From NCBI GenBank assembly GCA_965198225.1, contig CBDAOY010000007.1, positions 990,045 through 1,054,044 of the forward strand: a DNA stretch of 64,000 nt. Direction: 5' to 3'. Made by a program: the position numbers and the translations under genes. This document shows positions 3,001-53,751 of this stretch, piece by piece. Under the pieces are notes generated by a model that worked only from the letters and a program-made list of their open reading frames with translations, was not told where the DNA came from and did not search any database. How positions within the stretch are numbered: the stretch's first letter is position 1; each line of letters starts with the position of its first letter. This DNA comes from Terriglobia bacterium. Its GTDB lineage: Bacteria; Acidobacteriota; Terriglobia; 20CM-2-55-15.

Positions 3001-3161
3001 CCAACGTCTTGGGCTGGTTCCGTTGCTTGGCAGCGGTGCGAAGATCGAGAACCGGCTGGAGAATCGGGGTAGACCCGTCCAAACTGTGGGGTGAAATGCG
3101 GAGCACAGGACCGACCGTCAATGAATCAACTCTGTTATCAGCAGCTTACAGCTACGGGAAG

Positions 3162-3248
3162 CGGAGAGGGTGGGATTCGAACCCACGGTGGAGTCACCCC
3201 CACACCGGTTTTCGAGACCGGCCTGTTCAACCGCTCCAGCACCTCTCC
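3162..3248 (-). tRNA. tRNA-Ser (anticodon CGA)
   Basis: The reverse complement folds as a cloverleaf: acceptor GGAGAGG/CCTCTCC with discriminator G, anticodon stem CCGGT/ACCGG with loop CUCGAAA (anticodon CGA), a long variable arm (GTGG..CCAC) typical of class II tRNAs, and T arm GTGGG-TTCGAAT-CCCAC. No CCA is encoded. Confidence 0.92.
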
Positions 3249-34704: not shown

Positions 34705-34979
34705 CTAGTGACCTGTAACAGTGCTATCGGTACCAGCGTTCGGCGGAACGGCGTCGGATTCTAGGAGTGACGCTCGAGCCAATGCTGTTTCATTGCGAGG
34801 GCGTTGCGACACCGAAGACGGCGCCGTTCCGCCGAACCCTTCGGGCCGATGGGGGTTGCGGGCGATCTCTTTGTCGGAAGCCGTCACCGATGAAAGAGCA
34901 TCGCTTTCCGTCTCCCTCCTCGACCTCGCCCGCAAGACCCATCGGCGATGGTGCCGATAGCACTGCTACAGGCCACTAG
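34705..34979 (+). mobile_element. 275-bp MITE-like element, copy 2
   Basis: Same element as 25414..25688, with four substitutions. It starts 22 bp after the stop codon of the deacetylase gene. Confidence 0.7.
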
Positions 34980-35073
34980 GGTCCTTCTGGTTGTGGTACC
35001 TCGCCGTCCGCTTGCTATAATTGCGACTCTCCAGTCACCCAGAGAAGCGTATGCCGTTCGGCAGGTTGTCAGG

Positions 35074-36888
35074 ATGGAAGAAGAGAAGCTCGACGAAATC
35101 TTGAAAGGACAGGACGAAGCGCCCGTCGTCGAAGAGAAGCTGCGCACGCCGATGACGATTCTCTTCAGCGACATCAAGGGGTCGACCGCGTACTTCGAAC
35201 GGTATGGCGACGTCGAAGGGCTCGCGATGGTCCAGCGCCACAACGATCTCCTGTTTCCCTGCGTCGAGAACAACCACGGTCGGATCATCAAAACGATCGG
35301 CGATGCGATCATGGCGCTTTTCAACAATCCTGTTGATGCCATGAAGGCGGCAGCCGCCATGCAGCGCTCACTGTTCGACGACCGGAGCAACCGGTCGGAA
35401 TCGCAACGGGTCCACATCCGCATCGGCCTTCACACCGGCTTGGGATTGATGCAGGACAACGACGTGTTCGGCGACGTCGTCAACGCCTCGGCCAGGGTAC
35501 AGAGCCAGTCCGAACCCGACCAGATACTGATCACCGACAGCCTGCTGCATGCCGCCGAGACGGCCGGCATGCAGGTGGGTAAGCTCGGGCGGGCCCGGAT
35601 GAAGGGTAAGGATGAGCCGATCGACATCTACGCGGTGGCCTGGTCCGGGTGGGCGACCCAGCAGTTGATCGACGAGCTGCAGAGGAAGTTCGACGGTGCG
35701 TTGAGGGGGGCGAAAGAGAGACACAAGGCCCTGGAGGAAGAATTCGACGCCGCCCGCGACGGGTGGCGTGATGAACGGCGCCGTCTAAACGCCGAAGTCG
35801 AGCGCCTCGAGGAAGGTGCTCTCGACGCGATGGAAACGGCGCGAAACCAGGTATCCGAAGAGTTCCAGAAACAGCACCAGTTCAAGCAGGAAGCGACCGA
35901 CAAGGCCCGCGGGCAGGCCGAGGAGGATCTCAAAGGCACTCAGGAACGATTCGAGGCCGAGCGCGTCTCACTGAAGGCTCAGATCGCCAACCTGGAGGGG
36001 CGCCTCGTCGAAGCGATGGAGCGGAGCAACAACCCTGCGCGGGCTGCGACCCAGATTCGAGAACAGGTTCAAACGCGGTTGGACCAGGCCAAGAAGGAAT
36101 GGCAAGCCCAGTGGGAAGTCGAGCGGAAAAGGCTGGAAGCCGAGATCGAGAATGCAAAGACTGCCGGTCAGCCCAAGGATCCGATGGCCGAGGCGCGCCG
36201 GTTGATGATGGAGAAAATCAAGGCCAAACAGGAGGGCCGGGAGCCGGGCACACCGGGCGCCGAACTGGCCGCTGCGAAGGAAAAAGCGGAGAAAGAGCGT
36301 GACGAACTGCAGGCTCGCGTCGCGGGTCTCGAAAAAGAGGTCCAGAATGCCGAGGAAATAATCCGCCAGGAGGTTTACAACGACCTGCGTCACAAGTACG
36401 ACCAGAAGCTCGAGGCCGCGGATCGGATCAAGAAGCAACTTCAGCACGAAGTCCAGTCGCTCTCCGAGCAGCTCCAGGGCGAACGGGAGTCGCTTTCAGC
36501 GAGAATCAATCAGCTCGAAGCGGATGTGTCCGAGGCTGAGAACGCAGCCCGCGTCCAGGCGTCGGCTGAGGTCCGTTCCGACTACGAAAGCAAACTCGAC
36601 GACGCGGAGCGCGCGCGCTCCCGGCTGGAACGCCGCCGTCAGGAAGCCGTCGAAGAGATGGAACTGGAACGTTCCCGCCTGGAGAAACAGGTGAAGACCC
36701 TCGAGGCCGGCGTGCAGGAGGCCCGTGAAATGGCCTTCAAACGATCAAGCGATCCGACGATCGAGGAGCTCAACCGGTTGAGGCATCACCTGGAAGAAGA
36801 ATTTCGCGAGAAGACCGCTGCGTGGGAAGACGAGAAGCGCCACCTGCTGGAAAAGATTGCCCGCCTCGAAAACCCTGAAGGCGATTGA
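35074..36888 (+). CDS. Class III adenylate/guanylate cyclase domain fused to a ~450-aa coiled coil
   Basis: MTILFSDIKGSTAYFERYGD..IKTIGDAIMALF..RIGLHTG. This is followed by E/R/K/Q-rich heptad-like sequence. I prefer the ATG at 35074, because the track start at 34948 lies inside the MITE-like element. Confidence 0.8.
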   Translation: MEEEKLDEILKGQDEAPVVEEKLRTPMTILFSDIKGSTAYFERYGDVEGLAMVQRHNDLLFPCVENNHGRIIKTIGDAIMALFNNPVDAMKAAAAMQRSLFDDRSNRSESQRVHIRIGLHTGLGLMQDNDVFGDVVNASARVQSQSEPDQILITDSLLHAAETAGMQVGKLGRARMKGKDEPIDIYAVAWSGWATQQLIDELQRKFDGALRGAKERHKALEEEFDAARDGWRDERRRLNAEVERLEEGALDAMETARNQVSEEFQKQHQFKQEATDKARGQAEEDLKGTQERFEAERVSLKAQIANLEGRLVEAMERSNNPARAATQIREQVQTRLDQAKKEWQAQWEVERKRLEAEIENAKTAGQPKDPMAEARRLMMEKIKAKQEGREPGTPGAELAAAKEKAEKERDELQARVAGLEKEVQNAEEIIRQEVYNDLRHKYDQKLEAADRIKKQLQHEVQSLSEQLQGERESLSARINQLEADVSEAENAARVQASAEVRSDYESKLDDAERARSRLERRRQEAVEEMELERSRLEKQVKTLEAGVQEAREMAFKRSSDPTIEELNRLRHHLEEEFREKTAAWEDEKRHLLEKIARLENPEGD

Positions 36889-37489: not shown

Positions 37490-38305
37490 CTAATTTCCCC
37501 TCCGAATATAAATATTTCCGTTGAACGTGGTGAGCTGGAACTCCGGTCCGCCGCCGTTGATGTTGCCCGTGATCGTCTTGTCGATTCGGATTCGGCTACG
37601 GTCGCCGCGCGATTCGTCGATGACTTCCTGCGTTCCGCCGGACTGCCGCTCGATCTCGAAGTCGCTGTAGATCTCTCCGTTGTCGGTCTTCATCTTGATC
37701 GTGGCGTTGACGTTGCCGGGGAGCGTGACGTCGATTTCACCGTTGAGGGTACTGAAAGACATCGGTGTGTCGGGGGTGACGCTCGTGAACGTGACCACGA
37801 CCTCGCCGTTCAAAGCGTTCGCGATGGCCGATCCGCCGATGTTCGTCAGCCGTACTGCGCCGTTGGTGTTGTCGACCTCGATCTCGCCGCGAACATCGGA
37901 CACCACGATATCGCCTCCGCTGACCGTGTCCAGCTCCAACGAGGTGTCGAAGGGAACCCGGAGCCTCACGTTCGTGACACGGGACATCGCGCTGCTTTCG
38001 ATCGTCATCACGTTGTTCCGTTCTTCTACTTCCAGCCCGGTCGACAGGTTCGGAATTCGTCGCAGGCCGCGTGCCCTGGGAGGTGCCTCTCGCCGCGATT
38101 CAGAATCCTGCCCGGCGGCCTCGATCACGACGTCGGAACCGTCGTAGCCCTCGACGGTGATCCCTCCCATGAGGATATCGGCGACGACGCGTCCCGGACG
38201 TGATGGGTCGGAAAACGGAAGCGTGATCTGTTCCTGCGCCGCTACGGGCAGCGCCGTGGCGAGGAGCAACGGGATGATCACAGTTGCGAGATTGGCTTTG
38301 TTCAT
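37490..38305 (-). CDS. DUF4097-type beta-strand repeat protein (secreted)
   Basis: Signal peptide MNKANLATVIIPLLLATALPVAAQ. Repeats TNGAVRL, LNGEVVV, LNGEIDV, DNGEIYS, FNGNIYI. Confidence 0.7.
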   Translation of the reverse strand: MNKANLATVIIPLLLATALPVAAQEQITLPFSDPSRPGRVVADILMGGITVEGYDGSDVVIEAAGQDSESRREAPPRARGLRRIPNLSTGLEVEERNNVMTIESSAMSRVTNVRLRVPFDTSLELDTVSGGDIVVSDVRGEIEVDNTNGAVRLTNIGGSAIANALNGEVVVTFTSVTPDTPMSFSTLNGEIDVTLPGNVNATIKMKTDNGEIYSDFEIERQSGGTQEVIDESRGDRSRIRIDKTITGNINGGGPEFQLTTFNGNIYIRRGN

Positions 38306-38360
38306 GGTCTTCTTCCTTCGAGGCAGAATCGCCGCATTCTCCTCTAATCGTGACGAGTGA

Positions 38361-39179
38361 TCACAAGTTCAGTTGATCGAGCCCCCACGCGGCGCGTTCG
38401 CGCACGCTTTCATGGACGGCTCCGTTCTGCCTCAGTTGTTCGAAAACCCCGATAGACCGCTGCTCCCGGATGTCGACCAGAAAATTGATCAATGAGATCT
38501 GGACCAGTGGCGACTCCTGCCGGGCCAGGGAATTCAAAACCCCCTCCCGAACGGAGGGCGTGTCGCTGAATTCCACGAGAGCATCGATGACGGCGAGCCT
38601 CACGTTCACGTTGGGGTCGTAGTTCAGCGTGCTCAACAGGGAAGTCAGGATCTCTTGGTTCGGTCGAGCGATTTGCGAAGTCCAGTTCACGCCACGCAGG
38701 CGCTGGCTGGCCGATTGCTGTTCGAGAAGGGAGAGGGCGACGAGCTGTCTGAGGCTCTGGACTTCTCCCTCCAGAGTGCGCAGGTCCCCGTTCGGAGCCT
38801 CTGTCACCATGAACTGCGTACCAACGACGAGTCCGACGACGAGAAGCGTCAGTGCCGAACCGAGCTGAACCAGCGGTTGGCTGGGCCACCATCCCGCTAT
38901 CCACTCATTGAGAGATTCGTGCCATCGCGGTCCTGGATGGGCGTTGGCCAGGCCTTCCTCGTAAGCCTCCAACATGGCTTCGAAACGGGCTCGAACTTTG
39001 GGTGAAGGTTCCTCCGTCGGGATCGAACCGAGCTTCGTCCAGATGCCCCTGAGGCTATCCGCCTCCTGCTGGCATGCCGAGCAGGTGTTCCAGTGAGTCT
39101 GGAGGGCTGTCTTGGAGAGCTCATCCAGACTATCGGTCAGATAATCGGGGAGTTTTTCTCTTACTTTTGCGCATTCCAT
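38361..39179 (-). CDS. Anti-sigma factor (zf-HC2 N-terminus, one TM segment, HEAT-like repeat C-terminus)
   Basis: MECAKVREKLPDYLTD...HWNTCSACQQE (C-x..-H-x3-C-x2-C). TM segment LVQLGSALTLLVVGLVVG. It overlaps the upstream sigma gene by 19 nt. Confidence 0.7.
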   Translation of the reverse strand: MECAKVREKLPDYLTDSLDELSKTALQTHWNTCSACQQEADSLRGIWTKLGSIPTEEPSPKVRARFEAMLEAYEEGLANAHPGPRWHESLNEWIAGWWPSQPLVQLGSALTLLVVGLVVGTQFMVTEAPNGDLRTLEGEVQSLRQLVALSLLEQQSASQRLRGVNWTSQIARPNQEILTSLLSTLNYDPNVNVRLAVIDALVEFSDTPSVREGVLNSLARQESPLVQISLINFLVDIREQRSIGVFEQLRQNGAVHESVRERAAWGLDQLNL

Positions 39180-39745
39180 GACTTTTTCTCACCTGCAATC
39201 CTGAAATAGACCTTCCTCAGTTCCTGCGTTGCCCGGAAGACTCGAACCTTGACGGTTCCGGTGTCGCAGCCCATGACCTCGCCGATCTGATCGTATTTCA
39301 TGTTCTGAAACCGGCTCAGAATCAACACCTCGCGCTTCTCGTCGGGAAGATCCGCCAGAGCCCGTCGCAACAGCGCGGCCTCCTGCTTTTTCCCAAGGTC
39401 CTCGGGCGCGACCGACGGGCTCATCACCTCCAGCAGCGTGTCTTCGAAGTAGTACTCCCGCTTGTGCTTGTTGAGGTGGTCGATCCGGGCGTTCCGCGCG
39501 ATGTGGTACATCCACGTCGTGAACCGGCTGCTGGCTCGAAACGTAGCACGGTACTTCAGAATCCGGAAGAAGACGTCTTGAACGAGATCCTCGCTCACTT
39601 CGCGGCTGCCGGTCATCCGGATGAAGAAGTCGAACAGCTTCCTGTGATTCCGGTCAAACAGCACCCCCAGCTTGGCCACCTGCCCCTTGCTCACGTCGAG
39701 CATCAGGGCATCATCGCTGACGGAACTGACTTCCTGCGCCTTCAT
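39161..39745 (-). CDS. ECF-type sigma-70 family RNA polymerase sigma factor
   Basis: Region 2 DLVQDVFFRILKY..FTTWMYHIARN. Region 4 VLILSRFQNMKYDQIGEVMGCDTGTVKVRVFRA. Confidence 0.85.
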   Translation of the reverse strand: MKAQEVSSVSDDALMLDVSKGQVAKLGVLFDRNHRKLFDFFIRMTGSREVSEDLVQDVFFRILKYRATFRASSRFTTWMYHIARNARIDHLNKHKREYYFEDTLLEVMSPSVAPEDLGKKQEAALLRRALADLPDEKREVLILSRFQNMKYDQIGEVMGCDTGTVKVRVFRATQELRKVYFRIAGEKKSWNAQK

Positions 39746-40342
39746 TCTTCCGATTCCAATCCTGAAAACCGATCGATTGTCAAAAGGTTACAGAAAACCG
39801 CAACCAAAAGGGGCGATGATTTCAGAGTCGGTTTCAGAAGTTGGAGACCAGGGCTTAAAGGATTGATCACAAGCGTCTTATCGCCTGCCGACAGGCAAGA
39901 TTGCGACGACGTGGACGATGTGCCGAATGGAAAGGGACTTCGCAGTTGTGCAGGGAACGGCTCCAGGCCATAACCGACTTCGATCCAGATCCGGCGTTCC
40001 TCGATCGACGTCAGTATCAGGACACCGTTGTCTTCACCCCGCTGCCCGATGCCCCAGCGTTCGAAAAGACGGTTGGCGAAGTCCGCAATCTCCCCGCCCT
40101 GGAGCGACGGCAGCGTGACGACGGCCACCTGCGGACCGGTCTTCTGCTCGAGCTACGCCAGAAACGGTTCCACCTGACCCCGCTCGGCACTCATCACATT
40201 CGCGAAGTCATTGACGTATCCGCCGGGCTCCAGCTGATTGTGGAGCGCATCGCCCGTCTTGGGCCGAGAGCGGGGTCTGGCCGACGCAGACGGTCAGTGA
40301 CAGGAGCAGGGGCAGGAACAGCTTTGTCGTCGGGCGAAGCAT
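39742..40342 (-). pseudogene. Decayed TPM-domain (YgcG-like) protein gene
   Basis: Own translation. The signal peptide MLRPTTKLFLPLLLSLTVCVG from ATG 40342 is out of frame with the TPM core ..YVNDFANVMSAERGQVEPFLA*LEQKTGPQVAVVTLPSLQGGEIADFANRLFERWGIGQRGEDNGVLILTS..IEVGYGLE. That core contains an in-frame TAG (40155..40153). Similarity is lost after GYGLE. Confidence 0.5.
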
Positions 40343-40390: not shown

Positions 40391-40422
40391 AAAATAGGGA
40401 CAGACTCCTGTGTCCCTATTTT
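40391..40422. promoter_or_regulatory. Perfect 12-bp-arm palindrome AAAATAGGGACA-N8-TGTCCCTATTTT
   Basis: It sits in the ~100-bp divergent spacer between the TPM pseudogene and the glycosyltransferase gene. It could be an operator or a hairpin. It shares GGGACAG/TGTCCC with the 138-bp repeat family. Confidence 0.4.
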
Positions 40423-40448: not shown

Positions 40449-41150
40449 ATGCCGGCTATGAAGATCTCTGTCATCATCCCAGCCTACAACGAAGCGGACC
40501 AGATCGGGCTGACACTGGACGCCGTCCACGCCGCAGGCCTTGATGACGTTCTGGTGGTCGACGGCGGCAGTGCCGACGAAACGGTTCTGCACGCACAGGC
40601 CGCCCGGGTGACGACGATGGAGGGTCCCCGGGGAAGGGCGAGCCAGATGAACGCCGGCGCGCGAGTCAGCAGCGGGGAGGTCCTGCTGTTTCTCCACGCC
40701 GACACGCGCCTGCCGCCGGACGCGGGCCGGCTTGTCGAGAACGCCCTCGCGGACGATCGCGTCCTCGGTGGTGCCTTCCACCTGCGATTCGACTCCGGCG
40801 GCTGGCTCATGCGTCTGGTGAGCTTCCAGACCAACGTGCGTTCCTACATTCTCGCCCCCTGGGGGGATCAAGCTCTTTTCGTCCGCCGCACCTTCTTCCT
40901 CGAAACCGAAGGCTACCGGCAATGGCGCTTGATGGAGGACGTCGAAATGGCTCATCGCATCAAGAAGAACGGACGATTCACAATGATCCGGACCCCGGTG
41001 GTGACTTCCGGTCGACGATTTCGCGAGCAAGGCTTCATCCGAAACGGAGTCCGCAACCAGATGCTGATGGCGGCATACTATGCAGGCATTGCGCCGGACC
41101 GCCTGGCTCGATTCTATTCCTATGACCGGCGAACAAGAGAGGAACGCTGA
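40449..41150 (+). CDS. Family-2 glycosyltransferase of the 'rSAM/selenodomain-associated transferase 2' type (TIGR04283-like, by recollection)
   Basis: ISVIIPAYNEA..VVDGGSADET..GRASQMNAGA..LLFLHADTRLP..GGAFHLRFD..WGDQALFVRR..MEDVEMAHRIKK..TSGRRF. Confidence 0.75.
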   Translation: MPAMKISVIIPAYNEADQIGLTLDAVHAAGLDDVLVVDGGSADETVLHAQAARVTTMEGPRGRASQMNAGARVSSGEVLLFLHADTRLPPDAGRLVENALADDRVLGGAFHLRFDSGGWLMRLVSFQTNVRSYILAPWGDQALFVRRTFFLETEGYRQWRLMEDVEMAHRIKKNGRFTMIRTPVVTSGRRFREQGFIRNGVRNQMLMAAYYAGIAPDRLARFYSYDRRTREER

Positions 41151-41830
41151 TGAAGGCGCCGCTGGCGACCTCGCTTGTCATCATGGCCAAGGCGCCACGT
41201 GCCGGCCGCACGAAAACGCGCCTGTTTCCCGCTTTGACCCCTGATGAAGCCGCCGGTTTGTATCGGTCGATGTTGCTGGACACGATCGAGCGGCTCCGTT
41301 CGCTGTCCGGGTTCGAGCTCTGGCTGGCATTCACGCCGGAGGACGAACGGGCCTGGTTCGAGACGAACATCGATCCGCCGATCCCGTTGATGCCTCAGCG
41401 GGGCGACGATCTGGGCCAGCGTATGCACCACATCGTCGAAGACAGGTGCTCCGATGGAGCTGAAGCTGTGCTGCTCGTCGGAACCGACCTGCCCACGCTT
41501 CCCGCCGACTATGTGCGTCAGGCGGCGGATTTACTGCACGAGGACGACAGGGTCGTCCTCGGCCCGACCGAAGACGGGGGCTACTACCTGATCGGATTGT
41601 GCGAGCCGGACATCCGTCTGTTCGAACGAATCGAATGGAGCACGGATTCGGTCTTCCAGCAGACCGTCTGTCAGGCCGAGGCGGCAGGAAAGTCCGTCTC
41701 GACGGTTCCGTCCTGGTTCGACATCGACGAGCCTGCCGACCTCGAACGTCTCCGGAGCGCGCTCGAACACAGCGACGAGCAAACCCATCCCCCGCACACC
41801 GCGAACTTTCTGGCGTGTCTCGGAGGCTAG
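41150..41830 (+). CDS. DUF2064-family transferase of the 'rSAM/selenodomain-associated transferase 1' type (TIGR04282-like, by recollection)
   Basis: VIMAKAPRAGRTKTRL..PQRGDDLGQRM..LVGTDLPTLP..VLGPTEDGGYYLIGL..IEWSTDSV. Its ATG overlaps the upstream TGA by 1 nt. Confidence 0.75.
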   Translation: MKAPLATSLVIMAKAPRAGRTKTRLFPALTPDEAAGLYRSMLLDTIERLRSLSGFELWLAFTPEDERAWFETNIDPPIPLMPQRGDDLGQRMHHIVEDRCSDGAEAVLLVGTDLPTLPADYVRQAADLLHEDDRVVLGPTEDGGYYLIGLCEPDIRLFERIEWSTDSVFQQTVCQAEAAGKSVSTVPSWFDIDEPADLERLRSALEHSDEQTHPPHTANFLACLGG

Positions 41831-41869
41831 ACCATTTCGGGCCGTTCGATCGCGCCATAGCTGGCTCGA

Positions 41870-42514
41870 TCACTCCTCCGCTCCCGAATCTCCTTCAGTT
41901 GCGTCCTCCGTGAACTCCGCCAGCGAACGTCGCGCCATCTGTGTCAGCAGCACGGCGACGATCACGGTAGCACCGAGCCCGAACCAATAGAGGACGGTTT
42001 CTCCGGTCGTGGCCTCGCGTTGACCCGACAACATTTCCGCAATGTTGAAAGCGACGGACCCGATGTAGACGTACATCGCGGTGGCAGGGAACATTCCCAG
42101 AAAAGACGCCAATACATAGTCACGCAGGCGGACCCGCGTCAGGCCCAGCGAATAGTTCAGGAAGACGAAAGGAAAGACGGGCGACAGGCGGAGGAGTGTG
42201 ATCAGCTTGAATCCCGATTCTTCCGCGGCCTGGTTCAGCCGGTCGAGGAACGGCTGATTGCGGATCCGCCGCTCTATCCGGTGGCGGAACGCGGTACGAA
42301 CGAGTAGAAACGCGATCGTCGCGGCCAGGACGCTCACGGGAGAAACCAGAGCCGTTCCGAGAATCGGCCCGTATATGAATCCGGCGATCAGCGTCATCGC
42401 AGAGCCTGGAATCAGGGCGATGGTTGCAACTACGTATATAAGTGCGAAAGCGAGGGGACCGATCCAGCCCAGACCCCGGATCGTTTCGACAGCGATTATG
42501 ATCCAGTCGTCCAT
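41870..42514 (-). CDS. TVP38/TMEM64 (DedA-related, VTT domain) membrane protein
   Basis: PLAFALIYVVATIALIPGSAMTLIAGFIYGP..LRLSPVFPFVFLNYSLGLT. The start is uncertain (ATG 42514 or 42574; the track gives 42679). Confidence 0.8.
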   Translation of the reverse strand: MDDWIIIAVETIRGLGWIGPLAFALIYVVATIALIPGSAMTLIAGFIYGPILGTALVSPVSVLAATIAFLLVRTAFRHRIERRIRNQPFLDRLNQAAEESGFKLITLLRLSPVFPFVFLNYSLGLTRVRLRDYVLASFLGMFPATAMYVYIGSVAFNIAEMLSGQREATTGETVLYWFGLGATVIVAVLLTQMARRSLAEFTEDATEGDSGAEE

Positions 42515-42623
42515 GAGTAAGTGGCCACCAGGCCATATCGCGCATGGCTTGCGCACGAACTCGACGTGGGCCATCGGCGTGAAGAAAGCGCCCGGCTCCA
42601 CAAATGTCGCCGGGTGCGGCCTA

Positions 42624-45077
42624 TCAGCAGCACTCGCCGGGTTCGCAACACTCAACGCTGGACAGCGCCGCGTCAGCATCCTTGGCCATCACCAGGAAAG
42701 ATCCCGCGTAAGGCTCTCGCGACAGTTTCGCAGCGGTATCGGTGCACACCTGGACGGGTTCGTTTCGGGGAAAGAGGTGGCCTTCCTCGTCGACGACCGC
42801 CTTCAGCGGGCCCAGATAGACGGCGCGCTGGCCTTCGAAGTTGCACACTCCGTTCTTCCCGAACTTGAAGCCCTGGATGATCAGCGAGTAGAAACGGTAG
42901 CCTTCGATCTCTTTCCAGAAGGTTTTCTCGACGAGCGACAGGCCGTAGAAACCCACCTGCTCGAGCATGGCGAAGTATTCATCTTCGGTCAGTGCTCCCG
43001 AGACGCACTCTCCCCACAGCCGGGGGTTGGCTTTCATGTGGTGGGGAATCTTCGATTCGGACACCGTGTCGGAGATGATCGCGCGGCCGTGATTCTTCAG
43101 AACCCGCCACATCTGCGAAAGTACGCGGCGTTTATCGGGCGAAAGGTTGATCACGCAGTTGGACGTCACGATATCGGCCTTCTGATCCTCCAGCGGAAGC
43201 TGTTCGAGGTATCCGCGCCGGAATTCGACGACGTCGTACCCGAGGGATTCGGCGACGATGCCCCGATTCCGTTCGGCCCGCTCGATCATTTCCGTCGTCA
43301 TGTCGATGCCGATCACACGACCGCTGGACCCGACGCGCTGTGCCGCGATAAAGCAGTCGATACCGCCTCCCGAACCGAGATCGACGTATGTTTCGCCCGG
43401 CTTGATGTCGGCGAACCGAATCGGGCTGCCGCAGCCGTAGGACACCTCGACGACTTCCTTCGGCAGTGCCCGAAGCTCGGCGGGGTCGTAGGCGGTCGGA
43501 CAGCACAGCGCTTCCTGAGGCTCGACGGCCGCCTGGGCGTAGAACTGGCGGACTTTCTCACGCGATCGTTCCAAGTCGACGGAGAGGACGCACGTGGAAC
43601 GGGATGTGGCGATCTCGAACCCCTCCGCTTCAATGGTTTCCATCTCAGAAAGCGATTCACCCATCGCGGCCACGACGGTCGGGGAATCGTATCCGGATGG
43701 GCCCTCATGGCTCTTGTTCTCAGAGGCGATCTGCTCGATCGCTCGGAGCAGCAGCCATTCGTGAACCTTCGAAAACGGGTCTTTTCCAAGGACGGTGCCG
43801 GAGTAGAAGAATGAATGTTCGACGTCACCGCCGCCGCACACGTAGCGCAGGTAGCATTCCTGACAGTCTTCTTTCGCGATGACGCTGGCTCGGCGCAGCG
43901 CGCGCGCGCGCGCGGATGTTTTCCAGATTTCCGCCAGCGGCTGTTCCTCGACGTTGCCCATAAGCAGTTCGGGGACACCGGCCAGCGCCGCGGAAGGATA
44001 GACGGTGCCGTCCGCGTAGACGCAGCAGCTGCTCGTGGCCGCGACCGACAGGTCCATCTTGACCCCGCGTCGGCCCTGAGCCCTTTCCCGGGCGACCTCG
44101 TAGTTGTCGAGCTCGATTCCCTTCGAAGATGCGTTTTCCAGGTATCGTTCCAGCATCTCGATGATGTCGGCGGTGAACGGACTCTGCATCTGGTCGTCTT
44201 CCAGAGCCCTGCCCTGTTTGTGGTCCCACAGCAGGTGATGACGCCGGACGCCGAGTTTGTCCAGGAACTCCGGGAATCGAGGAAGCGTGTCGAGGTTCGA
44301 GCGAGTCACGACAGTGGACACGGTCGGTTCAAACGCGGCGTCCAGCAGGGCGCCGATGCCTTCGACGGTTCGCTCGAACCCGGATCCGCGGATCGCGTGG
44401 TGGGTCTCGCGGTCGGGTCCGTCGATGCTGACCTGTAGGGCCACGTTGCCGTTCGCGGCGGCTTTGAGATTGGCCAGGGTATCGCCCCGGAAGAACATGG
44501 CGTTGGTCAGGATGACGAGTTCGCTGTCGGTGCAGATGGCCCGAACGATGTCGATCAGGTCGCGCCGTAAGAACGGCTCTCCACCGGTGATGTAAAATTG
44601 CCGAACACCCATCTGTTTCGCGTCGTCGACGATCTTCAGCCATCGATCAGTTGGAAGTCCCTCGATCCCTTTCGGGGAAGAATCCACGAGGCAGTGGGCG
44701 CAAGTCAGGTTGCAGCGGTTCGTCAGGTGCAGCCACATCTCTTGCGGCTCGTGGCGCTCGATCAACGCCCCGCGACCCGGATAGGTCGGGTGCTGGAACG
44801 GCTCGCTTCTCAGGAAGTCGGTCCGCAGTGCATGGTTGAGCAGCGTGCTGACGTCGAGCCAGGCTTCGGCCCAGTCCTTGCCCGCGTGGGACCGGTAGCG
44901 GCCCACAAGGTCCGAGACCCTCCGCTGTCCGTCGATCCAGCCGAGTATTTCGACGCCCGCTCGGTTCGTCACGATCCAGTTTGGCGCCTCGGGGTCGAAC
45001 ATCAGTCCGAATTCTCCGATCAGCCGCTCTTCGTAACGTGGGGGCGCGTGAAGTACCTGTTCAGGCAAGATAGTCAT
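42624..45077 (-). CDS. Fusion protein: PqqD-like N-terminus + radical SAM/SPASM domain + complete ArsM-type As(III) S-adenosylmethionine methyltransferase + Cys-rich tail
   Basis: Radical-SAM motif TNRCNLTCAHC. SPASM-like CCVYADGTVYPS..CQECYLRYVCGGG. ArsM hallmarks VRQFYAQAA..ALCCPTAYD..YGCGSP..VDLGSGGGIDCF..NCVINLSPDK..WGECVSGA, with all four As-binding Cys positions present. Tail VECCEPGECC. A GGAG Shine-Dalgarno precedes the ATG. Confidence 0.85.
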   Translation of the reverse strand: MTILPEQVLHAPPRYEERLIGEFGLMFDPEAPNWIVTNRAGVEILGWIDGQRRVSDLVGRYRSHAGKDWAEAWLDVSTLLNHALRTDFLRSEPFQHPTYPGRGALIERHEPQEMWLHLTNRCNLTCAHCLVDSSPKGIEGLPTDRWLKIVDDAKQMGVRQFYITGGEPFLRRDLIDIVRAICTDSELVILTNAMFFRGDTLANLKAAANGNVALQVSIDGPDRETHHAIRGSGFERTVEGIGALLDAAFEPTVSTVVTRSNLDTLPRFPEFLDKLGVRRHHLLWDHKQGRALEDDQMQSPFTADIIEMLERYLENASSKGIELDNYEVARERAQGRRGVKMDLSVAATSSCCVYADGTVYPSAALAGVPELLMGNVEEQPLAEIWKTSARARALRRASVIAKEDCQECYLRYVCGGGDVEHSFFYSGTVLGKDPFSKVHEWLLLRAIEQIASENKSHEGPSGYDSPTVVAAMGESLSEMETIEAEGFEIATSRSTCVLSVDLERSREKVRQFYAQAAVEPQEALCCPTAYDPAELRALPKEVVEVSYGCGSPIRFADIKPGETYVDLGSGGGIDCFIAAQRVGSSGRVIGIDMTTEMIERAERNRGIVAESLGYDVVEFRRGYLEQLPLEDQKADIVTSNCVINLSPDKRRVLSQMWRVLKNHGRAIISDTVSESKIPHHMKANPRLWGECVSGALTEDEYFAMLEQVGFYGLSLVEKTFWKEIEGYRFYSLIIQGFKFGKNGVCNFEGQRAVYLGPLKAVVDEEGHLFPRNEPVQVCTDTAAKLSREPYAGSFLVMAKDADAALSSVECCEPGECC

Positions 45078-45256
45078 GGGGTGTCTCCTGATTCAATGCG
45101 AAGGGCAAGTTCTCCGAACGAATCATTTGATCGACTTTTCTTCAGCCGATATTGTAAGCGAAGTCACCGAGATGGGAAGGGTAGCGTGGATGTCAAAGAC
45201 GAGAGAGGTGAGGGGCGCCGGCAGACGATGACGCGACCTGCCGGCGTCTGCGCCTT

Positions 45257-45915
45257 ATCCCGGGCGTCGACGCATCTCTTCCCGGGTGATGAATCCATCA
45301 TCGTCCGCGTCGAGGCGGTCGAAGGCCTCAGTCGGTCGGGTCCACTCGTCACGAGAAACCTTGCCGTCGCCGTCTTCATCCATCTGGAGCATCGCGGCTC
45401 CCCGGCCACGTCCGCCTCTGCCCGGGCGGGAGTTCTGCATCTCTTCGAGAGTGATGAAGCCGTCGCCATCGGCGTCCATGGTCTCGAACATCTGCGCGGG
45501 ACCCGGAAACTCCTGCTGCGACACGCGTCCATCGCCATCGCTGTCGAGCCCCTGGAAACGGGCTTGAGGGTCTGCGCCTCTTCCGCCTCTATCCCGGGCG
45601 TCGCCATCTCTTCCCGAATCCATCATCGTCCGCGTCGAGGCGGTCGAAGGCCTCAGTCGGTCGGGTCCACTCGTCACGAGAAACCTTGCCGTCGCCGTCT
45701 TCATCCATCTGGAGCATCGCGGCTCCCCGGCCACGTCCGCCTCTGCCCGGGCGGGAGTTCTGCATCTCTTCGAGAGTGATGAAGCCGTCGCCATCGGCGT
45801 CCATGGTCTCGAACATCTGCGCGGGACCCGGAAACTCCTGCTGCGACACGCGTCCATCGCCATCGCTGTCGAGCCCCTGGAAACGGGCTTGAGGGTCTGC
45901 GCCTCTTCCGCCTCT
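45257..45915. repeat. Tandem direct duplication (334 bp + 325 bp) inside the EF-hand coding region
   Basis: 45257..45590 and 45591..45915 are identical by eye except for a roughly 9-10-nt indel cluster at the start of each unit (..GACGCATCTCTTCCCGGGTGATGAATCC versus ..GCCATCTCTTCCCGAATCC). Confidence 0.85.
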
Positions 45916-46746
45916 GCCGCGGCCGCCCCCGAATTGCCGCTGGATTTCGTCACGAGCGAGGAGACCATCATCGTTTCGATCGAGCCGGTCGAACGTCTCG
46001 CCGTCGCCCGTCCACTCTTCCCGTGAGATTGTACCGTCCTCGTTCGTGTCCATGACGCCCATACCGCCCGCAGTCCCGGGCCTCTGCCCCGGCCGAGGGC
46101 GCATACCACGCATGCCGCGGCCGCGACGCTGTCCCTGTTCCTGTCCGTAGGCGGTGATCTCCCCTCTGAGAGCGACCTCGAGCGCTGCCCTGGCTTCGGG
46201 GACATCGAACCCGGCCGGCCCGGGGCGTCCCTTGAAGGCGATGGTGCCGTCGGAGCCCACGACATAGATCCGGTCGGGAAACGCGGCGTACGCATTCGCC
46301 GTCCGGTCGTCGATCTTGTCCAGAATGGTCGGCATCGAGATGTCCAAGGCGGTCGTACAGATGTTGGCTGCTTCCTGGCGCTGCTCGTCGGTTTTGGCTT
46401 GTTCGATCAGGATGCCGTCGATAACATTCGCCGCTCCGAGGTTGCCGTCGGTGGGATGCGCTTCTCGAATGTAGACGAAGAAGAAATTGGCGCGGTCCTT
46501 GTAAGCCTGGTACCAGTTTTCGATGTCCACGACATCGCGGCGGAACGGGCCTCAGGTATAGCTGGCGAAGATCAGCGCGGTCGGTCTGCCCGTCATCTCA
46601 GAAAGCGTAATCTTTTGCTTTCCGTCTTTTGTACTGAGCGTGAAATCAGGCGCCGTATCTCCAGGCGTGGGGCCGCCGCCTCGCCGCTGGGCCGTGGCAG
46701 GGCTCACCAGGACGAGGACCAATAACGCAGACGCGAATGTTCTCAT
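45589..46746 (-). CDS. Candidate selenoprotein: secreted deiodinase-like thioredoxin-fold domain (in-frame TGA = Sec) fused to EF-hand repeats
   Basis: Track ORFs 46552..46788 and 45589..46530 are in one frame. Read through TGA 46554..46552 they give ..TALIFASYT-U-GPFRRDVVDIENWYQAYKDRANFFFVYIREAHPTDG... The ATG at 46746 is preceded by GGAGGAG and is followed by signal peptide MRTFASALLVLVLVSPATAQ. There are five intact EF-hand loops plus one truncated loop. Confidence 0.6.
46521..46537 (-). promoter_or_regulatory. Candidate bacterial SECIS hairpin
   Basis: The RNA CGAUGUC-GUG-GACAUCG starts 14 nt after the UGA. It is a 7-bp perfect stem with G/U in the apical loop. Confidence 0.4.
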
Positions 46747-47558: not shown

Positions 47559-47864
47559 ATGCCTCGAAACTACATGACATATCCGTCCGGTCTGGTCCTG
47601 CAGGCAATCGCTTCGGGGCATCGGTATGGTTTCGATGTGATGGATGTGACGGGATTGCCGAGTGGTACGGTTTACCCGGCACTTCGGAAGCTGGAACGAG
47701 AGGGCTATGTCCGTTCCAGGTGGGAAGGCGAAGATGTGGCCCGCCAGGCAGGGCGTCCACCGCGGCGTTACTACGAGGTTAGCGGCCCTGGCTCGGCGGC
47801 CTTGACCCAGCTGCTGAAACGGTTTCCAGGACTGGCCCGGGCCCTTGCCGCGGAGGTCTTGTGA
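47559..47864 (+). CDS. PadR-family transcriptional regulator
   Basis: LVLQAIASGHRYGFDVMDVTGLPSGTVYPALRKLEREGYVRSRWE..GRPPRRYYEVS. Confidence 0.88.
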   Translation: MPRNYMTYPSGLVLQAIASGHRYGFDVMDVTGLPSGTVYPALRKLEREGYVRSRWEGEDVARQAGRPPRRYYEVSGPGSAALTQLLKRFPGLARALAAEVL

Positions 47865-48475
47865 GGTGGGCAGGCGGCGAGCGGTCTCTCCGCGTCTGCC
47901 TGTTGTGGATTCGCGCTCTGTCGTTCCTCGTCCCGCCCCCGGGCCGGGACGAATGGATGCGGGAGTGGCGTGGCGAGCTTCTGCATCACTGGAGTGAGTT
48001 CGAGACAGGAGTTCAAAAGTCCCGTGCTGCAAGATTCGATTTGTTCCTACATTCGATGGGCGCCTTGCCTGATGCACTGTGTCTGCTGCGTCAGGAGTGG
48101 AGACTGGACATGCTGATGCAGGATCTGACCTATGCGGTACGGACGCTCGGCGCTCGACCGGGCTTCACCTTCGTAGTGATTTTCATTCTGGCGCTGGGTA
48201 TCGGGGCCAACACCGTCGTGTTCAGCGTCGTCGATGCCGTCCTGTTTCGACCCCTACCGTTTCCCGAGCCGGAGAGGCTGGTTGCGATCTGGGACGAAAA
48301 CACCCAAAAGTCGATGCTTCGTCAGGGTCCGGCGCCCGGCAATCTGCTGGACTGGCGTGACCAGTCACGGGTGTTCGATGGTATCGGAGCCTGGTACGCG
48401 GGCGAGCCCAGGACTGTGCGCGACGAGTCCAGTGCGGAGAAAGTGTCCGCCACTATAGGATTTTATTATGTCTAA
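47861..48475 (+). pseudogene. ADOP-type (duplicated MacB/FtsX-like) permease gene, truncated after ~197 codons by island insertion
   Basis: MLMQDLTYAVRTLGARPGFTFVVIFILALGIGANTVVFSVVDAVLFRPLPFPEPERLVAIW..NLLDWRDQSRVFDGIG matches the ADOP N-terminus. Similarity ends at ..AEKVSA (about 48451), where AT-rich foreign sequence supplies a stop. Confidence 0.75.
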
Positions 48476-48535
48476 TAATATCCATAAGTCTTATTTATAT
48501 CAACAGTATATCGTCCTAGACAATCCAGCGCCGTC

Positions 48536-48544
48536 TGGTATAAT
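48536..48544 (+). promoter_or_regulatory. Extended -10 element TGGTATAAT upstream of the integrase
   Basis: A TGnTATAAT match about 70 nt upstream of the integrase ATG, within the AT-rich junction. Confidence 0.35.
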
Positions 48545-48613
48545 CCAAGCCTGTTGGGGGATATATTGGGGGAGTGCTGGAGTGCCTCTGCCCCATCGGT
48601 CGAGGGCTCTGCA

Positions 48614-49792
48614 ATGGCCATTCACAAACTCTCCCAACGCAAGGTAGACACCGCCGGTCCCGGCAAATACGAAGACGGCGGCGGGCTCCGCTTGGTGGTG
48701 TCCAATTCAGGCGCCAGGAGATGGGTCCTGCGTTACACCGTCCACGGCAAACGCCGGGAAATGGGTCTGGGCCGTTATCCCGATGTCGGGTTGGCCGATG
48801 CCCGCACGCAAGCGCTACGGCACCGGAGGCAGTTGGCGACGGGCGTAGATCCCATCGCAGCCCGCCGGGCGGCCCCGGAGACGCTACCCACCTTCACCAT
48901 CTGCGCCGCCCGGTATATCCGGGCCCATCGACGGAGTTGGCACAATGCCAAGCACGCGCGGCAATGGGTCCGGAGCCTGAAGACCTATGCCCGGCCCGTC
49001 ATCGGGGCCAAACGGGTCGACGCCATTGAGACTGAAGACATTGTAAAGATACTCTCTTCGATCTGGAACACCAAGACCGAAACGGCCAAGCGCGTGCAGG
49101 GGCGCATCGAAAATGTCCTGGACTTCGCCGCCGCGCACCAATACTGCGGTCCCCTGAACCCGGCCCGCTGGCGGGGCCATCTGGACAAGTTGCTCCCGAA
49201 GCCCTCCCGGGTGAAGCAAGTCACCCACCACCCGGCCATGCCGTATCCCGAGGTGGCGGACTTCCTGCAGGAGCTGTCCGGACACCGGAGTGTATCGGCG
49301 CAGGCGCTGCGGTTTTTGATCCTGACCGCCACGCGCACCAGTGAAGTCTTAGAGGCGCAGTGGCCGGAAATCGATCGGACCGCCGGTATATGGATCCTTC
49401 CCGCCTCCCGGATGAAAGCCCGACGGGAACATCGAGTTCCCTTATCGGATGCGACCCTGGCGGTTCTGGAAGACCTACCCCGCATGGCAGGCCACCCGTA
49501 TGTCTTCGCCGGATCTCGCCACGGACGCCCTCTGTCGAACATGGCCCTACTGAAATTGATGCGAGACATGGGATATTGCGTTGAGGGTTCCCGGGCTCAC
49601 TACGTGCCGCATGGATTTCGCTCCAGTTTTCGGGATTGGTCCGGCGAGGTGTCGAGCTTCCCGCGAGAAGTTGCGGAAATGGCCTTGGCCCACGTGGTGG
49701 AGAACAAGGTGGAAGCGGCCTACCGGCGGGGGGATCTGTTCGCCAAACGGCGCAGCATGATGCAGGCCTGGGCCGACTACCTCAAGAAGTAG
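48614..49792 (+). CDS. Tyrosine recombinase / P4-type integrase (DUF4102 arm-binding N-terminus)
   Basis: MAIHKLSQRKVDTAGPGKYEDGGGLRLVVSNSGARRWVLRY..GRYPDVGLADAR. Catalytic region TATRTSEV, HGFRSSFRDW, AYRRGD. Confidence 0.9.
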   Translation: MAIHKLSQRKVDTAGPGKYEDGGGLRLVVSNSGARRWVLRYTVHGKRREMGLGRYPDVGLADARTQALRHRRQLATGVDPIAARRAAPETLPTFTICAARYIRAHRRSWHNAKHARQWVRSLKTYARPVIGAKRVDAIETEDIVKILSSIWNTKTETAKRVQGRIENVLDFAAAHQYCGPLNPARWRGHLDKLLPKPSRVKQVTHHPAMPYPEVADFLQELSGHRSVSAQALRFLILTATRTSEVLEAQWPEIDRTAGIWILPASRMKARREHRVPLSDATLAVLEDLPRMAGHPYVFAGSRHGRPLSNMALLKLMRDMGYCVEGSRAHYVPHGFRSSFRDWSGEVSSFPREVAEMALAHVVENKVEAAYRRGDLFAKRRSMMQAWADYLKK

Positions 49793-52611: not shown

Positions 52612-53751
52612 ATGCGCGTGCTCTCTTTTTCGCTGCAAGGCCTTAAAACCGGGTTATTTCTGCTATTCGCATCACTGCTGGCCGTGTCGGCGCCGATTCA
52701 GGCCAGCGCGCAGGCGAACAGCCCTCCGGCGGTGACGGGGCCAACCAGCGTCGACTACGCCGAGAACAGCGAGGAGACGGTGGCCACGTATATCGCTACG
52801 GACCCGGAGGCCGAAGCAATCGCGTGGAGCGTGTCCGGGACGGACCATGCGCTGTTTTCCATCACTGCGGGTGTCCTGGAGTTCCTGAGCCCGCCGAACT
52901 ACGAGAGGCCTATCGACGAGGGCGAAGACAACGCGTATGAGGTGGGCGTCACGGCCACGGATTCCTCCGGGGCGGCCGCCACCGTTGCGGTCACCGTGAC
53001 GGTAACAGACGTCAACGACCCGAACATCGTCCTCATCATGGCGGACGATGTCGGTTATGAGGCCTTTGGGGCATACGGTAGCGCACAGTACAGAACGCCG
53101 CGAATTGATGAGCTTGCAGCCGCGGGAGTTCGCTTCACGAACGCTTACTCAAACCCGGTATGCACCCCGAGCAGAGTTGCCTTGATGACGGGTAAGAGCA
53201 GTGTCAGGAACTATGTGGATTTCGGAGTTCTACTCCCCGGAGAATACACGATTACTGATCTCTTTAGTGGGGCCGGATACGCAACGGCCATCGCCGGAAA
53301 GTGGCAGCTTCACGGTAGTGTCGTAGGTAGTGACGTAGTGGCTGGTGTCCCTGCCGGAACCGGATTCGACACGTATTCCTTGTGGAATACAGCCAACACG
53401 GGTCGTAGTCGCTACTGGAATCCTTCCATCGAACGCGACGGTGAAATCATCGATCTGGGCAGCGAGGATTACGGGCCCGACATATTCACGAATTTCCTGC
53501 TGGAATTCATAGAGTCCAACAGAGATAAACCGTTTTTCGCCTACTACCCGATGGTGCTTCCTCATGATCCGTTCGGCTCGCCGCCGCAAGCCCAATGCGT
53601 CGATACCGCTGACGGACAGTGCAATTTCGAGGACATGGTCGCGTATCTCGATTACAACGTCGGCCGCATACGCGACAAGCTGGCGGACCTGGAGCTACTC
53701 GACAACACAATCCTCATATTCACCTCCGACAACGGAACTCACGCACGCTGA
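52612..53751 (+). CDS. Signal peptide + cadherin-like domain + sulfatase N-terminal part (continues in the +1 frame; see 53738..58837)
   Basis: MRVLSFSLQGLKTGLFLLFASLLAVSAPIQASA. VTVTDVNDPNIVLIMADDVGY. Formylglycine motif CTPSR. The frame ends ..IFTSDNGTHAR*, in the middle of the sulfatase domain. Confidence 0.8.
   Translation: MRVLSFSLQGLKTGLFLLFASLLAVSAPIQASAQANSPPAVTGPTSVDYAENSEETVATYIATDPEAEAIAWSVSGTDHALFSITAGVLEFLSPPNYERPIDEGEDNAYEVGVTATDSSGAAATVAVTVTVTDVNDPNIVLIMADDVGYEAFGAYGSAQYRTPRIDELAAAGVRFTNAYSNPVCTPSRVALMTGKSSVRNYVDFGVLLPGEYTITDLFSGAGYATAIAGKWQLHGSVVGSDVVAGVPAGTGFDTYSLWNTANTGRSRYWNPSIERDGEIIDLGSEDYGPDIFTNFLLEFIESNRDKPFFAYYPMVLPHDPFGSPPQAQCVDTADGQCNFEDMVAYLDYNVGRIRDKLADLELLDNTILIFTSDNGTHAR

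Follow-up and report, generated by a model that had tools for sequence, protein, structure and literature searches.

A radical-SAM/ArsM fusion beside two transferases suggests a possible new route to complex organoarsenicals in non-phototrophic bacteria

Genes of the locus and domains of the fusion protein

The 64-kb stretch of Terriglobia DNA analysed here (the window, within which all positions are counted) derives from a soil bacterium and encodes an 817-amino acid (aa) protein in which a radical S-adenosylmethionine (SAM; radical SAM, rSAM) enzyme is covalently joined to an ArsM-type arsenite (As(III)) methyltransferase. Beside this fusion lie a family-2 glycosyltransferase (GT2), a DUF2064 protein, and a VTT/DedA membrane protein. 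The recurrence of the fusion beside the two transferases in many genomes suggests that non-photosynthetic bacteria have a route to complex organic arsenic compounds that has yet to be described. Every open reading frame (ORF) of an initial annotation of this DNA is present where that annotation had placed it. The genes and domains are as follows, where RRE denotes the RiPP recognition element, RiPP a ribosomally synthesized and post-translationally modified peptide, and pLDDT the predicted local distance difference test score.

42624..45077, minus strand: 817-aa fusion of an RRE, a radical-SAM domain, a partial SPASM domain, an ArsM-type methyltransferase, and a Cys tail
44778..45077, minus strand: RRE/PqqD-fold domain (fusion aa 1–100), beta3-alpha3 topology, motif DPEAPNW
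44073..44765, minus strand: radical-SAM core (fusion aa 105–335), C122-x3-C126-x2-C129, TGGEPF SAM motif
43698..44060, minus strand: partial SPASM/twitch domain (fusion aa 340–460), C352, triad C405-x2-C408-x5-C414, then invariant GGGDxEH
42678..43580, minus strand: complete ArsM-type As(III) SAM methyltransferase (aa 500–800), including the ArsM-specific C-terminal domain
42627..42677, minus strand: disordered Cys-rich tail ending in VECCEPGECC (aa 801–817), pLDDT below 50 at residues 803–817
40449..41150, plus strand: GT2 glycosyltransferase, member of TIGR04283 (TIGR04283 profile, PF00535)
41150..41830, plus strand: DUF2064/CofC-like nucleotidyltransferase-fold protein, member of TIGR04282 (TIGR04282 profile, PF09837)
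41870..42679, minus strand: VTT/DedA (TVP38-type) membrane protein (PF09335 VTT_dom, 97.7 bits; threshold 33.9)

We modelled the fusion with AlphaFold2 (AF2) using 60 homologues and compared structures by Foldseek. The whole-protein model has a pLDDT of 87.4 and a predicted template modelling (pTM) score of 0.87, with disorder confined to the last 15 residues and a short linker; the pTM indicates that the predicted protein is a compact multidomain enzyme. The initial annotation had described a three-part fusion convergent with the transferase pair, and this is borne out, as four domains are recognized by both sequence and fold.

The C-terminal half (aa 480–817) is most similar, among sequences in the PDB, to CrArsM (8.6e-40), human AS3MT (2.4e-36), and CmArsM (3.7e-31), whereas generic methyltransferases reach only ∼1e-9. 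The solved ArsM/AS3MT structures matched are 5evj, 8xt7, and 4fr0, and the phmmer alignment extends to residue 318 of 338. ArsM structures, with whose three-domain fold this half agrees, also rank first when the fusion is compared by Foldseek (5evj at E 2.6e-22; 5evj, 4fs8, and 8xt7 to 1e-20, with ∼300 aligned columns). All top NCBIfam families of this half are ArsM-type, at 150–245 bits, while UbiE scores 53. Sequence, fold, and NCBIfam thus agree on ArsM, not on the generic UbiE-type enzymes with which this half might have clustered. NF008823 (ArsM) is the best-scoring family, and its cut-off of 263 is narrowly missed by both the C-terminal half (244.9 bits) and the whole protein (241.8 bits); NF040538 (arsinothricin ArsM) gives 215.7 bits against 500, with an alignment up to profile position 355 of 356, and NF038099 (arsenosugar ArsM) gives 174.5 against 400. 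Three selenoprotein-linked ArsM-type models (ArsM_AhpD_UU, ArsM_DUF2284_UU, and MTase_UXPK_star) score 149–171 bits on the same half.

The SAM-binding motif DLGSGGGID is present, and C525/C526, C549, C641, and C691 align with the catalytic Cys residues of CrArsM and human AS3MT. The four As(III)-binding positions that had been read from the motifs CC, GCG, NCVINL, and GECVSGA are therefore all in place and aligned to solved structures, and the VECCEPGECC tail is present as described. We also considered selenocysteine in place of the terminal CC and rejected it: a genuine stop follows, sometimes doubled, and nothing beyond it is conserved.

At the N-terminus, the PqqD profile PF05402 scores 17.3 bits, under its gathering threshold of 23.4, and several homologues exceed that threshold (e.g., P0247, 33.3 bits). 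A separate AF2 model of aa 1–104 (pLDDT 91.8) has the winged-helix beta3-alpha3 fold of RREs. Its top Foldseek matches include leader-peptide-bound TbiB1 (5v1v; E 5.7e-4, target-normalized TM 0.73), PqqD (5sxy; TM 0.72, root-mean-square deviation 2.7 Å), lasso B1, and the PbtF RRE, with target-normalized TM values of 0.68–0.73. Because the fold matches, we regard the PqqD-like assignment of the initial annotation as settled, for which the sub-threshold Pfam score alone would be insufficient.

The radical-SAM core passes PF04055 (79.5 bits, threshold 29.5) and carries the previously noted CNLTCAHC motif. Its half of the protein is closest by sequence to PqqE and SkfB and by fold to CteB, SuiB, and anSME. 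The best NCBIfam families for aa 1–479 are the sactipeptide maturase StsB (top), Rv1681, AhbD, and NirJ2; TIGR04167 (ArsS) is missing from the 25 best, the lowest of which scores 64 bits. In agreement with the earlier report that no canonical ArsS is visible, the 64-kb window holds no other ORF of at least 150 aa with a CX3CX2C motif. The Cys-rich region that had been called SPASM-like does pass PF13186 (32.5 bits, threshold 21.5) but is only a partial, twitch-like SPASM domain, with four of the seven canonical Cys (C352, C405, C408, and C414) and with the second and seventh lacking.

Both transferases pass the curated NCBIfam cut-offs of the families to which they had been assigned. On TIGR04283, the GT2 protein reaches 239.1 bits (cut-off 182) across the whole profile (positions 1–221 of 221); on Pfam PF00535, it reaches 67 bits. 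A GTG at 40410 starts the longest ORF, and the profile start agrees with the ATG at 40449. The DUF2064 protein scores 195.6 bits on TIGR04282 (cut-off 134) and 117 bits on Pfam PF09837. The two genes adjoin on the same strand and share one base, 41150, in the GT2 stop codon. Both are ordinary members of families already known, whose function is unproven. The TVP38/DedA-type gene lies downstream of the fusion, as reported, and is co-directional with it. Its true start is probably an internal ATG, at 42574 or 42514, with which its 56-nt overlap with the fusion disappears. A scan for promoters and terminators returned only matches near background.

A widespread family and its gene neighbourhood

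Clustered at 90% identity, relatives of the fusion number at least 397; each of the best 120 is full length (815–866 aa) and carries only a generic name. The family (∼820 aa) occurs in 80 GTDB species representatives and spans at least 12 phylum-level lineages; carriers include Acidobacteriota, Nitrospirota, Gemmatimonadota, Planctomycetota (including Scalindua), Elusimicrobiota, Chloroflexota, Myxococcota, and others, with Ca. Manganitrophus also among the carriers. The closest genomic relative, a Terriglobia metagenome-assembled genome (locus L001), shows 95% identity and an identical gene order. No NCBIfam family, including the ArsS, ArsM, and rSAM families, takes in the fusion at its cut-off, and a full-text literature search found no description of an rSAM-ArsM fusion. 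The fusion is an uncharacterized, widespread, and conserved family, and we found no sign that it had already been characterized with an unrelated substrate, a possibility that the initial annotation had raised.

The rSAM CX3CX2C motif (C122, C126, C129) is kept in 73 of the 73 homologues having that region, and C496 and the four ArsM Cys in all 77 homologues. C496, C745, C778, and the terminal CC are invariant additions to the standard ArsM set across these 77, with the -CC ending found in 75–76 of them. The DPEAPNW motif of the RRE is also strongly conserved. The SPASM-type triad C405/C408/C414 behaves differently: it is whole in 42 of 77 homologues and gone in 35, with no partial cases. As only four of seven SPASM Cys are present and the triad is so often lost, there can be at most one auxiliary cluster, and close to half of the family can dispense with it.

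An exhaustive HMMER search with the rSAM half returned 164 representatives at E 1e-30 or better and several architectures. Besides the rSAM-ArsM form (P0247), the clade includes the reverse order ArsM-rSAM-SPASM (P0271 and P0273, ∼680–705 aa), in which NF008823 scores 213 and 234 bits, the CC, GCG, SNCV, and SSC motifs are present, and the CX2CX5CX3C SPASM motif is complete. Triple fusions (P0267, P0276, and P0288, ∼1,000–1,080 aa) add a DUF5714/MbdU-like metal-binding domain to rSAM-ArsM. There are also one fusion to a UbiG-like methyltransferase and stand-alone forms. The reverse-order P0273 lies in an operon (L088) of TIGR04282, YdjY, an unassigned gene, VTT, a flippase-like gene, C_GCAxxG, TIGR04283, the fusion, and thioredoxin. 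The stand-alone P0257 (L087) follows a flippase-like membrane protein and directly precedes TIGR04283 and TIGR04282. Together with the fusion loci, these two loci couple the rSAM clade to ArsM-type methyltransferases and the transferase pair in three independent arrangements.

One cyanobacterial-like locus (L085:5373-10696) groups genes for an ArsR-type regulator, a PstS-like phosphate-binding protein, an ArsM-like methyltransferase (403 aa; 320 bits on NF040538, below its cut-off), TIGR04282, and TIGR04283, with no rSAM gene within 10 kb. It ties the transferase pair to an ArsM-like enzyme independently of the fusion.

To describe the neighbourhood of the fusion itself, ORFs of the 80 loci and the window (81 in total) were clustered and antisense shadows were discarded; neighbour identities were confirmed on L030 and further loci. 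The recurrent neighbours are:

29 of 81 loci: PiT/PHO4-family transporter (the commonest)
25 of 81 loci: VTT/DedA protein
22 of 81 loci: TIGR04283-type GT2
19 of 81 loci: MerA-like flavin adenine dinucleotide (FAD) oxidoreductase (NF004991)
18 of 81 loci: DUF2064 protein
15 of 81 loci: DUF547 protein

At least one of PiT, VTT, TIGR04283, TIGR04282, the MerA-like flavoprotein, and DUF547 is present in 60 of the 81 loci; the same partner families recur in so many loci, from many phyla, that we do not attribute the arrangement to chance. The GT2 or DUF2064 gene occurs in 31 loci, from at least 12 phylum-level lineages and both SPASM subclades. Where at least 8 kb is available on either side of the fusion (28 loci), transferases are found in 12 and at least one partner in 21. 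Within 5 kb of the fusion, 24 loci have a VTT gene, which in 13 is the immediate neighbour on the same strand. Full co-directional operons are seen in L030/L066, L018, L027, and L063, the gene order in L030 being PiT-fusion-TIGR04283-TIGR04282-DUF547-VTT-flavoprotein. The window holds a reduced set of fusion, VTT, TIGR04282, and TIGR04283, with no homologue of PiT, DUF547, or the MerA-like flavoprotein.

None of the 80 fusion loci contains an ArsS-type rSAM gene; in its place stands the rSAM-ArsM fusion. Extra rSAM genes in these loci are limited to those for MoaA, a Tes-like lipid synthase (Vicinamibacterales only), a MiaB-like protein, and frameshifted fragments of the fusion. The resistance genes arsR, arsC, and acr3 are not among the recurrent neighbours. 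An adjacent RiPP precursor was considered and rejected, as the ORFs of 20–90 aa that recur no farther than 1.5 kb from the fusion, in 78 loci, are all out-of-frame or antisense shadows of neighbouring genes.

Several loci carry variants of these partners. A DUF2064 gene lies immediately upstream of the fusion in four Thermoanaerobaculia-type loci (L024, L032, L036, and L038) and scores 55–115 bits on TIGR04282 (cut-off 134); by these scores, the DUF2064 proteins of such loci form a diverged subgroup. At L057:7132-8634, a TIGR04283 domain shares one protein with a second GT2, similar to AglJ and to dolichyl-phosphate hexose transferases. In five Vicinamibacterales loci (L055, L057, L058, L062, and L064), a ∼700-aa Tes homologue (NF045702, 306 bits; cut-off 450) and a MoaA gene lie 3.5–6 kb downstream of the fusion (e.g., the Tes-like/MoaA example at L064:15963-18008 and L064:18151-19173). 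A Tes-like rSAM enzyme in Acidobacteriota is of interest for the synthesis of membrane-spanning lipids.

Directly upstream of the fusion in the window, on the same strand, lies a probable selenoprotein gene (45589-46746, minus strand) with an in-frame TGA at 46552-46554. The candidate protein has a signal peptide, a T4_deiodinase-like thioredoxin-fold domain (PF00837, 85.5 bits) with the sequence ALIFASYT-U-GPFR, and C-terminal EF-hands. The TGA and both of its flanks are kept in L001 (91% identity) and L002 (61% identity), and a hairpin begins 17 nt past the UGA. Deiodinase-like proteins are a known predicted family of prokaryotic selenoproteins, and the EF-hand deiodinase-like gene keeps its position beside the rSAM-ArsM gene in Terriglobia. 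Its EF-hand region contains a 100% identical tandem duplication (45291-45915; 325-bp unit, 1.9 copies). As 325 is not a multiple of three, the duplication shifts the frame, so that two ORFs (45255-46295 and 45589-46530) overlap and contain repeated protein sequence. Either a very recent event or an assembly artefact could account for it.

Further upstream of the fusion, a P4-type tyrosine integrase (48554-49792; Arm-DNA-bind_3, Phage_int_M, and Phage_integrase domains) is preceded by a PadR regulator (47559-47864) and a short permease-like ORF (47861-48475). No tRNA gene lies at the integrase junction; the only one in the window is a tRNA-Ser (3161-3248). G+C content rises to 0.675 at 56–58 kb, inside a 1757-aa ORF (53564-58837). 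The regions 47559-49792 and 56000-58000 may belong to an integrated element. On the other side, the window encodes an adenylate/guanylate cyclase with a ∼400-aa coiled-coil tail (34948-36888, plus strand), a trio of an extracytoplasmic function sigma factor, a zf-HC2/HEAT anti-sigma factor, and a DUF4097 gene (37490-39745, minus strand), and a TPM-domain fragment (39742-40128); these appear to have no connection to the fusion or the transferases.

A candidate organoarsenical synthase and its alternatives

We propose, at a probability of roughly one half, that the fusion is a bifunctional organoarsenical synthase whose ArsM module methylates arsenic and whose rSAM module forms a further C–As bond, as ArsM with ArsS, or ArsL with ArsM, do. 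Its strong homology suggests that the ArsM module would hold As(III) by the four conserved Cys and methylate it with SAM. As the RCCLKC tail of ArsL binds As, the flexible CC...CC tail may, by analogy, shuttle the trivalent arsenical from one active site to the other. There, the rSAM module would cleave a second SAM, and radical addition to the trivalent arsenical would create the further C–As bond, as in ArsS and ArsL. The fusion would combine ArsM and an ArsS-like activity in one polypeptide and serve as the rSAM partner of the TIGR04282/TIGR04283 pair. TIGR04283, TIGR04282, and VTT/DedA could convert or translocate the product to give a glycosylated, possibly lipid-linked organoarsenical, with the PiT transporter, MerA-like flavoprotein, DUF547, and flippase-like proteins participating elsewhere as well. 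A lipid-linked glycoconjugate is hinted at by the weak similarity of the GT2 protein to polyprenyl-phosphate glycosyltransferases, the double GT2 of L057, and the repeated presence of MprF-type flippase-like and VTT/DedA proteins. The initial annotation had suggested an undescribed organoarsenical pathway variant with an rSAM enzyme joined to an arsenite methyltransferase; fusions in both domain orders and a neighbourhood kept across three architectures support this at the level of sequence.

A broader version of this proposal is more tentative, and we would not favour it over its contrary. Here, the fusion would represent a third class of C–As-forming rSAM enzymes, of RRE-SPASM type and permanently joined to ArsM. 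With TIGR04283, TIGR04282, VTT/DedA or flippase-like proteins, and PiT as partners, it would make a glycosylated or lipid-linked organoarsenical (an arsenosugar, an arsenolipid, or a new scaffold) in abundant non-phototrophic bacteria of soil, groundwater, and sediment (Acidobacteriota, Nitrospirota, Gemmatimonadota, anammox Planctomycetota, and Elusimicrobiota). In place of a RiPP leader peptide, the RRE would have been repurposed to dock a carrier or the Cys tail of the same enzyme.

Several observations weigh against an organoarsenical synthase. Judged by sequence, the rSAM half is unrelated to ArsS beyond the superfamily level. The ArsM half falls below every curated ArsM cut-off (245/263, 216/500, and 175/400 bits), and Sb, Se, and Te are also possible substrates of ArsM-type enzymes. 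Transferases lie near the fusion in only ∼30–40% of loci. They are absent from L002 (79% identical), and the convergent orientation in the window means that the pair and the fusion do not share one transcript there. Although NCBI names the transferases 'arsenosugar biosynthesis glycosyltransferase', the older name of the Joint Genome Institute (JGI) is 'rSAM/selenodomain-associated transferase', and the word 'arsenosugar' is the curators' inference; we found nothing in the literature tying TIGR04283/TIGR04282 to arsenosugar chemistry or giving a glycosyltransferase a role there. Outside the fusion loci, five contexts of TIGR04283 homologues were sampled. Those from Coleofasciculus, Binatia, and L086 have no rSAM or ArsM partner, that from Nitrospira adjoins a KamA-like rSAM gene, and L085 has an ArsM-like gene but no rSAM gene. 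Strict linkage of the transferases to ArsS is rejected on these heterogeneous contexts, for which reason we do not take 'arsenosugar' as an established function. Finally, the chemistry of the fusion is one that we infer for every member of the family.

The best-surviving alternative, though an unlikely one, uses several of these same facts. Under it, the fusion is only a detoxifying, anoxic-adapted ArsM, whose rSAM/Fe-S part supplies electrons or an extra methylation or demethylation, and the transferase pair is an unrelated neighbour. The lack of co-transcription in the window, the many Nitrospirota loci that, like L002, have a fusion without transferases, the unrelated contexts of the pair, and the mostly anoxic or micro-oxic habitats of the hosts (judged from record titles) all fit. 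The linkage of transferases to the rSAM clade is nevertheless found in three independent architectures and at least 12 lineages, and the presence of two specific families within 10 kb is far above chance. The SAM-binding and cluster motifs of a competent rSAM enzyme are invariant. Detoxification also sits poorly with a neighbourhood in which arsR, arsC, and acr3 do not recur and in which an adjoining PiT/PHO4 transporter, from an uptake family, would fit acquisition better than export.

Slightly less likely still is that architecture and logic are as we propose and the native substrate is Sb, Se, or Te instead of arsenic. Related ArsM-type domains form the selenoprotein families matched above, the older transferase name refers to a selenodomain, a probable selenoprotein gene lies directly upstream of the fusion in the window, and MerA-like flavoproteins, MerR regulators, and the MbdU-like metal-binding domain occur among relatives. 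The best matches, however, are experimentally characterized As(III) methyltransferases whose four As-binding Cys are all present, and the fusion itself has no selenocysteine codon. Its commonest neighbour belongs to the PiT/PHO4 family, which is known to carry arsenate, a phosphate analogue, and in L085 the transferase genes sit in one cluster with those of an ArsR-type regulator and an ArsM-like enzyme.

The alternative that we consider weakest, by a little, is a true RiPP or protein maturase, in which the RRE brings in a peptide (from a gene elsewhere, or part of the enzyme itself or of a partner protein), the rSAM domain modifies it, and the ArsM-like module methylates it or loads a metalloid. 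The nearest structures of the rSAM half are RRE-bearing peptide maturases (CteB, SuiB, and SkfB), on which the N-terminal 480 residues superpose and which would normally imply a peptide substrate; the best matches of the RRE are leader-peptide-bound, StsB heads the NCBIfam families, and the strong conservation of DPEAPNW suggests an invariant binding partner. Yet a maturase is unlikely given that the 78 loci show no conserved small ORF at up to 1.5 kb from the fusion, that the neighbours are transferases, transporters, and a flavoprotein and not the proteases or exporters typical of RiPP clusters, that the auxiliary-cluster Cys usually needed for peptide cross-linking are wholly lost in 35 of 77 homologues, that the four As(III)-binding Cys of ArsM are invariant, and that AhbD, NirJ, and BlsE of the same rSAM class handle small molecules.

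An organoarsenical synthase of this kind would matter for several reasons. Among the major arsenic species of the environment and of food chains are complex organoarsenicals (such as arsenosugars and arsenolipids), and we know of no defined biosynthetic step beyond methylation on the way to them other than the cyanobacterial ArsS reaction. If the proposal is correct, the fusion would provide a genetic marker for organoarsenical synthesis outside phototrophs, a new enzyme class beside ArsM, ArsS, and ArsL among C–As bond-forming catalysts, and a handle on the functions of its TIGR04282, TIGR04283, DUF547, and VTT/DedA partners. It would also be unusual as an RRE-containing enzyme apparently without a peptide substrate.

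Comparison with known systems

All known bacterial C–As bonds are made by SAM enzymes. ArsS, whose gene is co-transcribed with arsM, adds a 5'-deoxyadenosyl radical to dimethylarsenite (DMAs(III)) to form a C–As bond. ArsL adds a 3-amino-3-carboxypropyl radical to As(III) bound at its C-terminal RCCLKC motif, and ArsM methylates the product.

Like ArsM and ArsS of the cyanobacterial arsenosugar pathway, the fusion couples an As(III) methyltransferase to an rSAM enzyme and has a Cys-rich C-terminal region, and TIGR04283 and TIGR04282 are, by their family definitions (NCBI and JGI names), partners of the TIGR04167 rSAM enzyme of the ArsS system. It differs in carrying both predicted activities in one polypeptide, in the RRE-SPASM/twitch class of its rSAM domain (nearest PqqE, SkfB, CteB, and AhbD), in its non-phototrophic hosts (Acidobacteriota, Nitrospirota, Gemmatimonadota, Planctomycetota, and others), and in the low score of its ArsM part on the arsenosugar ArsM model (175 bits, cut-off 400).

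As with ArsL and ArsM of the arsinothricin (AST) pathway (arsQML), the C-terminus may bind arsenic: the near-invariant CCxPxxCC tail of the fusion could do so as RCCLKC does. ArsL, by contrast, is a non-canonical rSAM enzyme and a separate protein without RRE or SPASM domains. The fusion reaches only 216 bits on the AST ArsM model (cut-off 500), and no ArsQ-type permease is found among its neighbours.

With the RiPP maturases CteB, SuiB, SkfB, and PqqE/PqqD, the fusion shares the domain order RRE, rSAM, SPASM/twitch; CteB matches its N-terminal half at a Foldseek E of 1.3e-17 over 481 aligned columns (target-normalized TM 0.70). Unlike them, it has no nearby precursor gene, an incomplete SPASM domain (lost in 45%), a covalently joined ArsM, and non-RiPP neighbours. 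Stand-alone ArsM/AS3MT enzymes (NF008823; 4FR0, 5EVJ, and 8XT7) share the fold, the SAM motif, the four catalytic Cys, and the C-terminal domain of the fusion, which has ∼490 extra N-terminal residues, the added C496, C745, C778, and terminal CC, and a score of 245 bits against 263. The fusion would work like the known pairs of an rSAM enzyme and ArsM; what is new is the class of rSAM enzyme, the covalent link, the RRE, and the taxonomic range.

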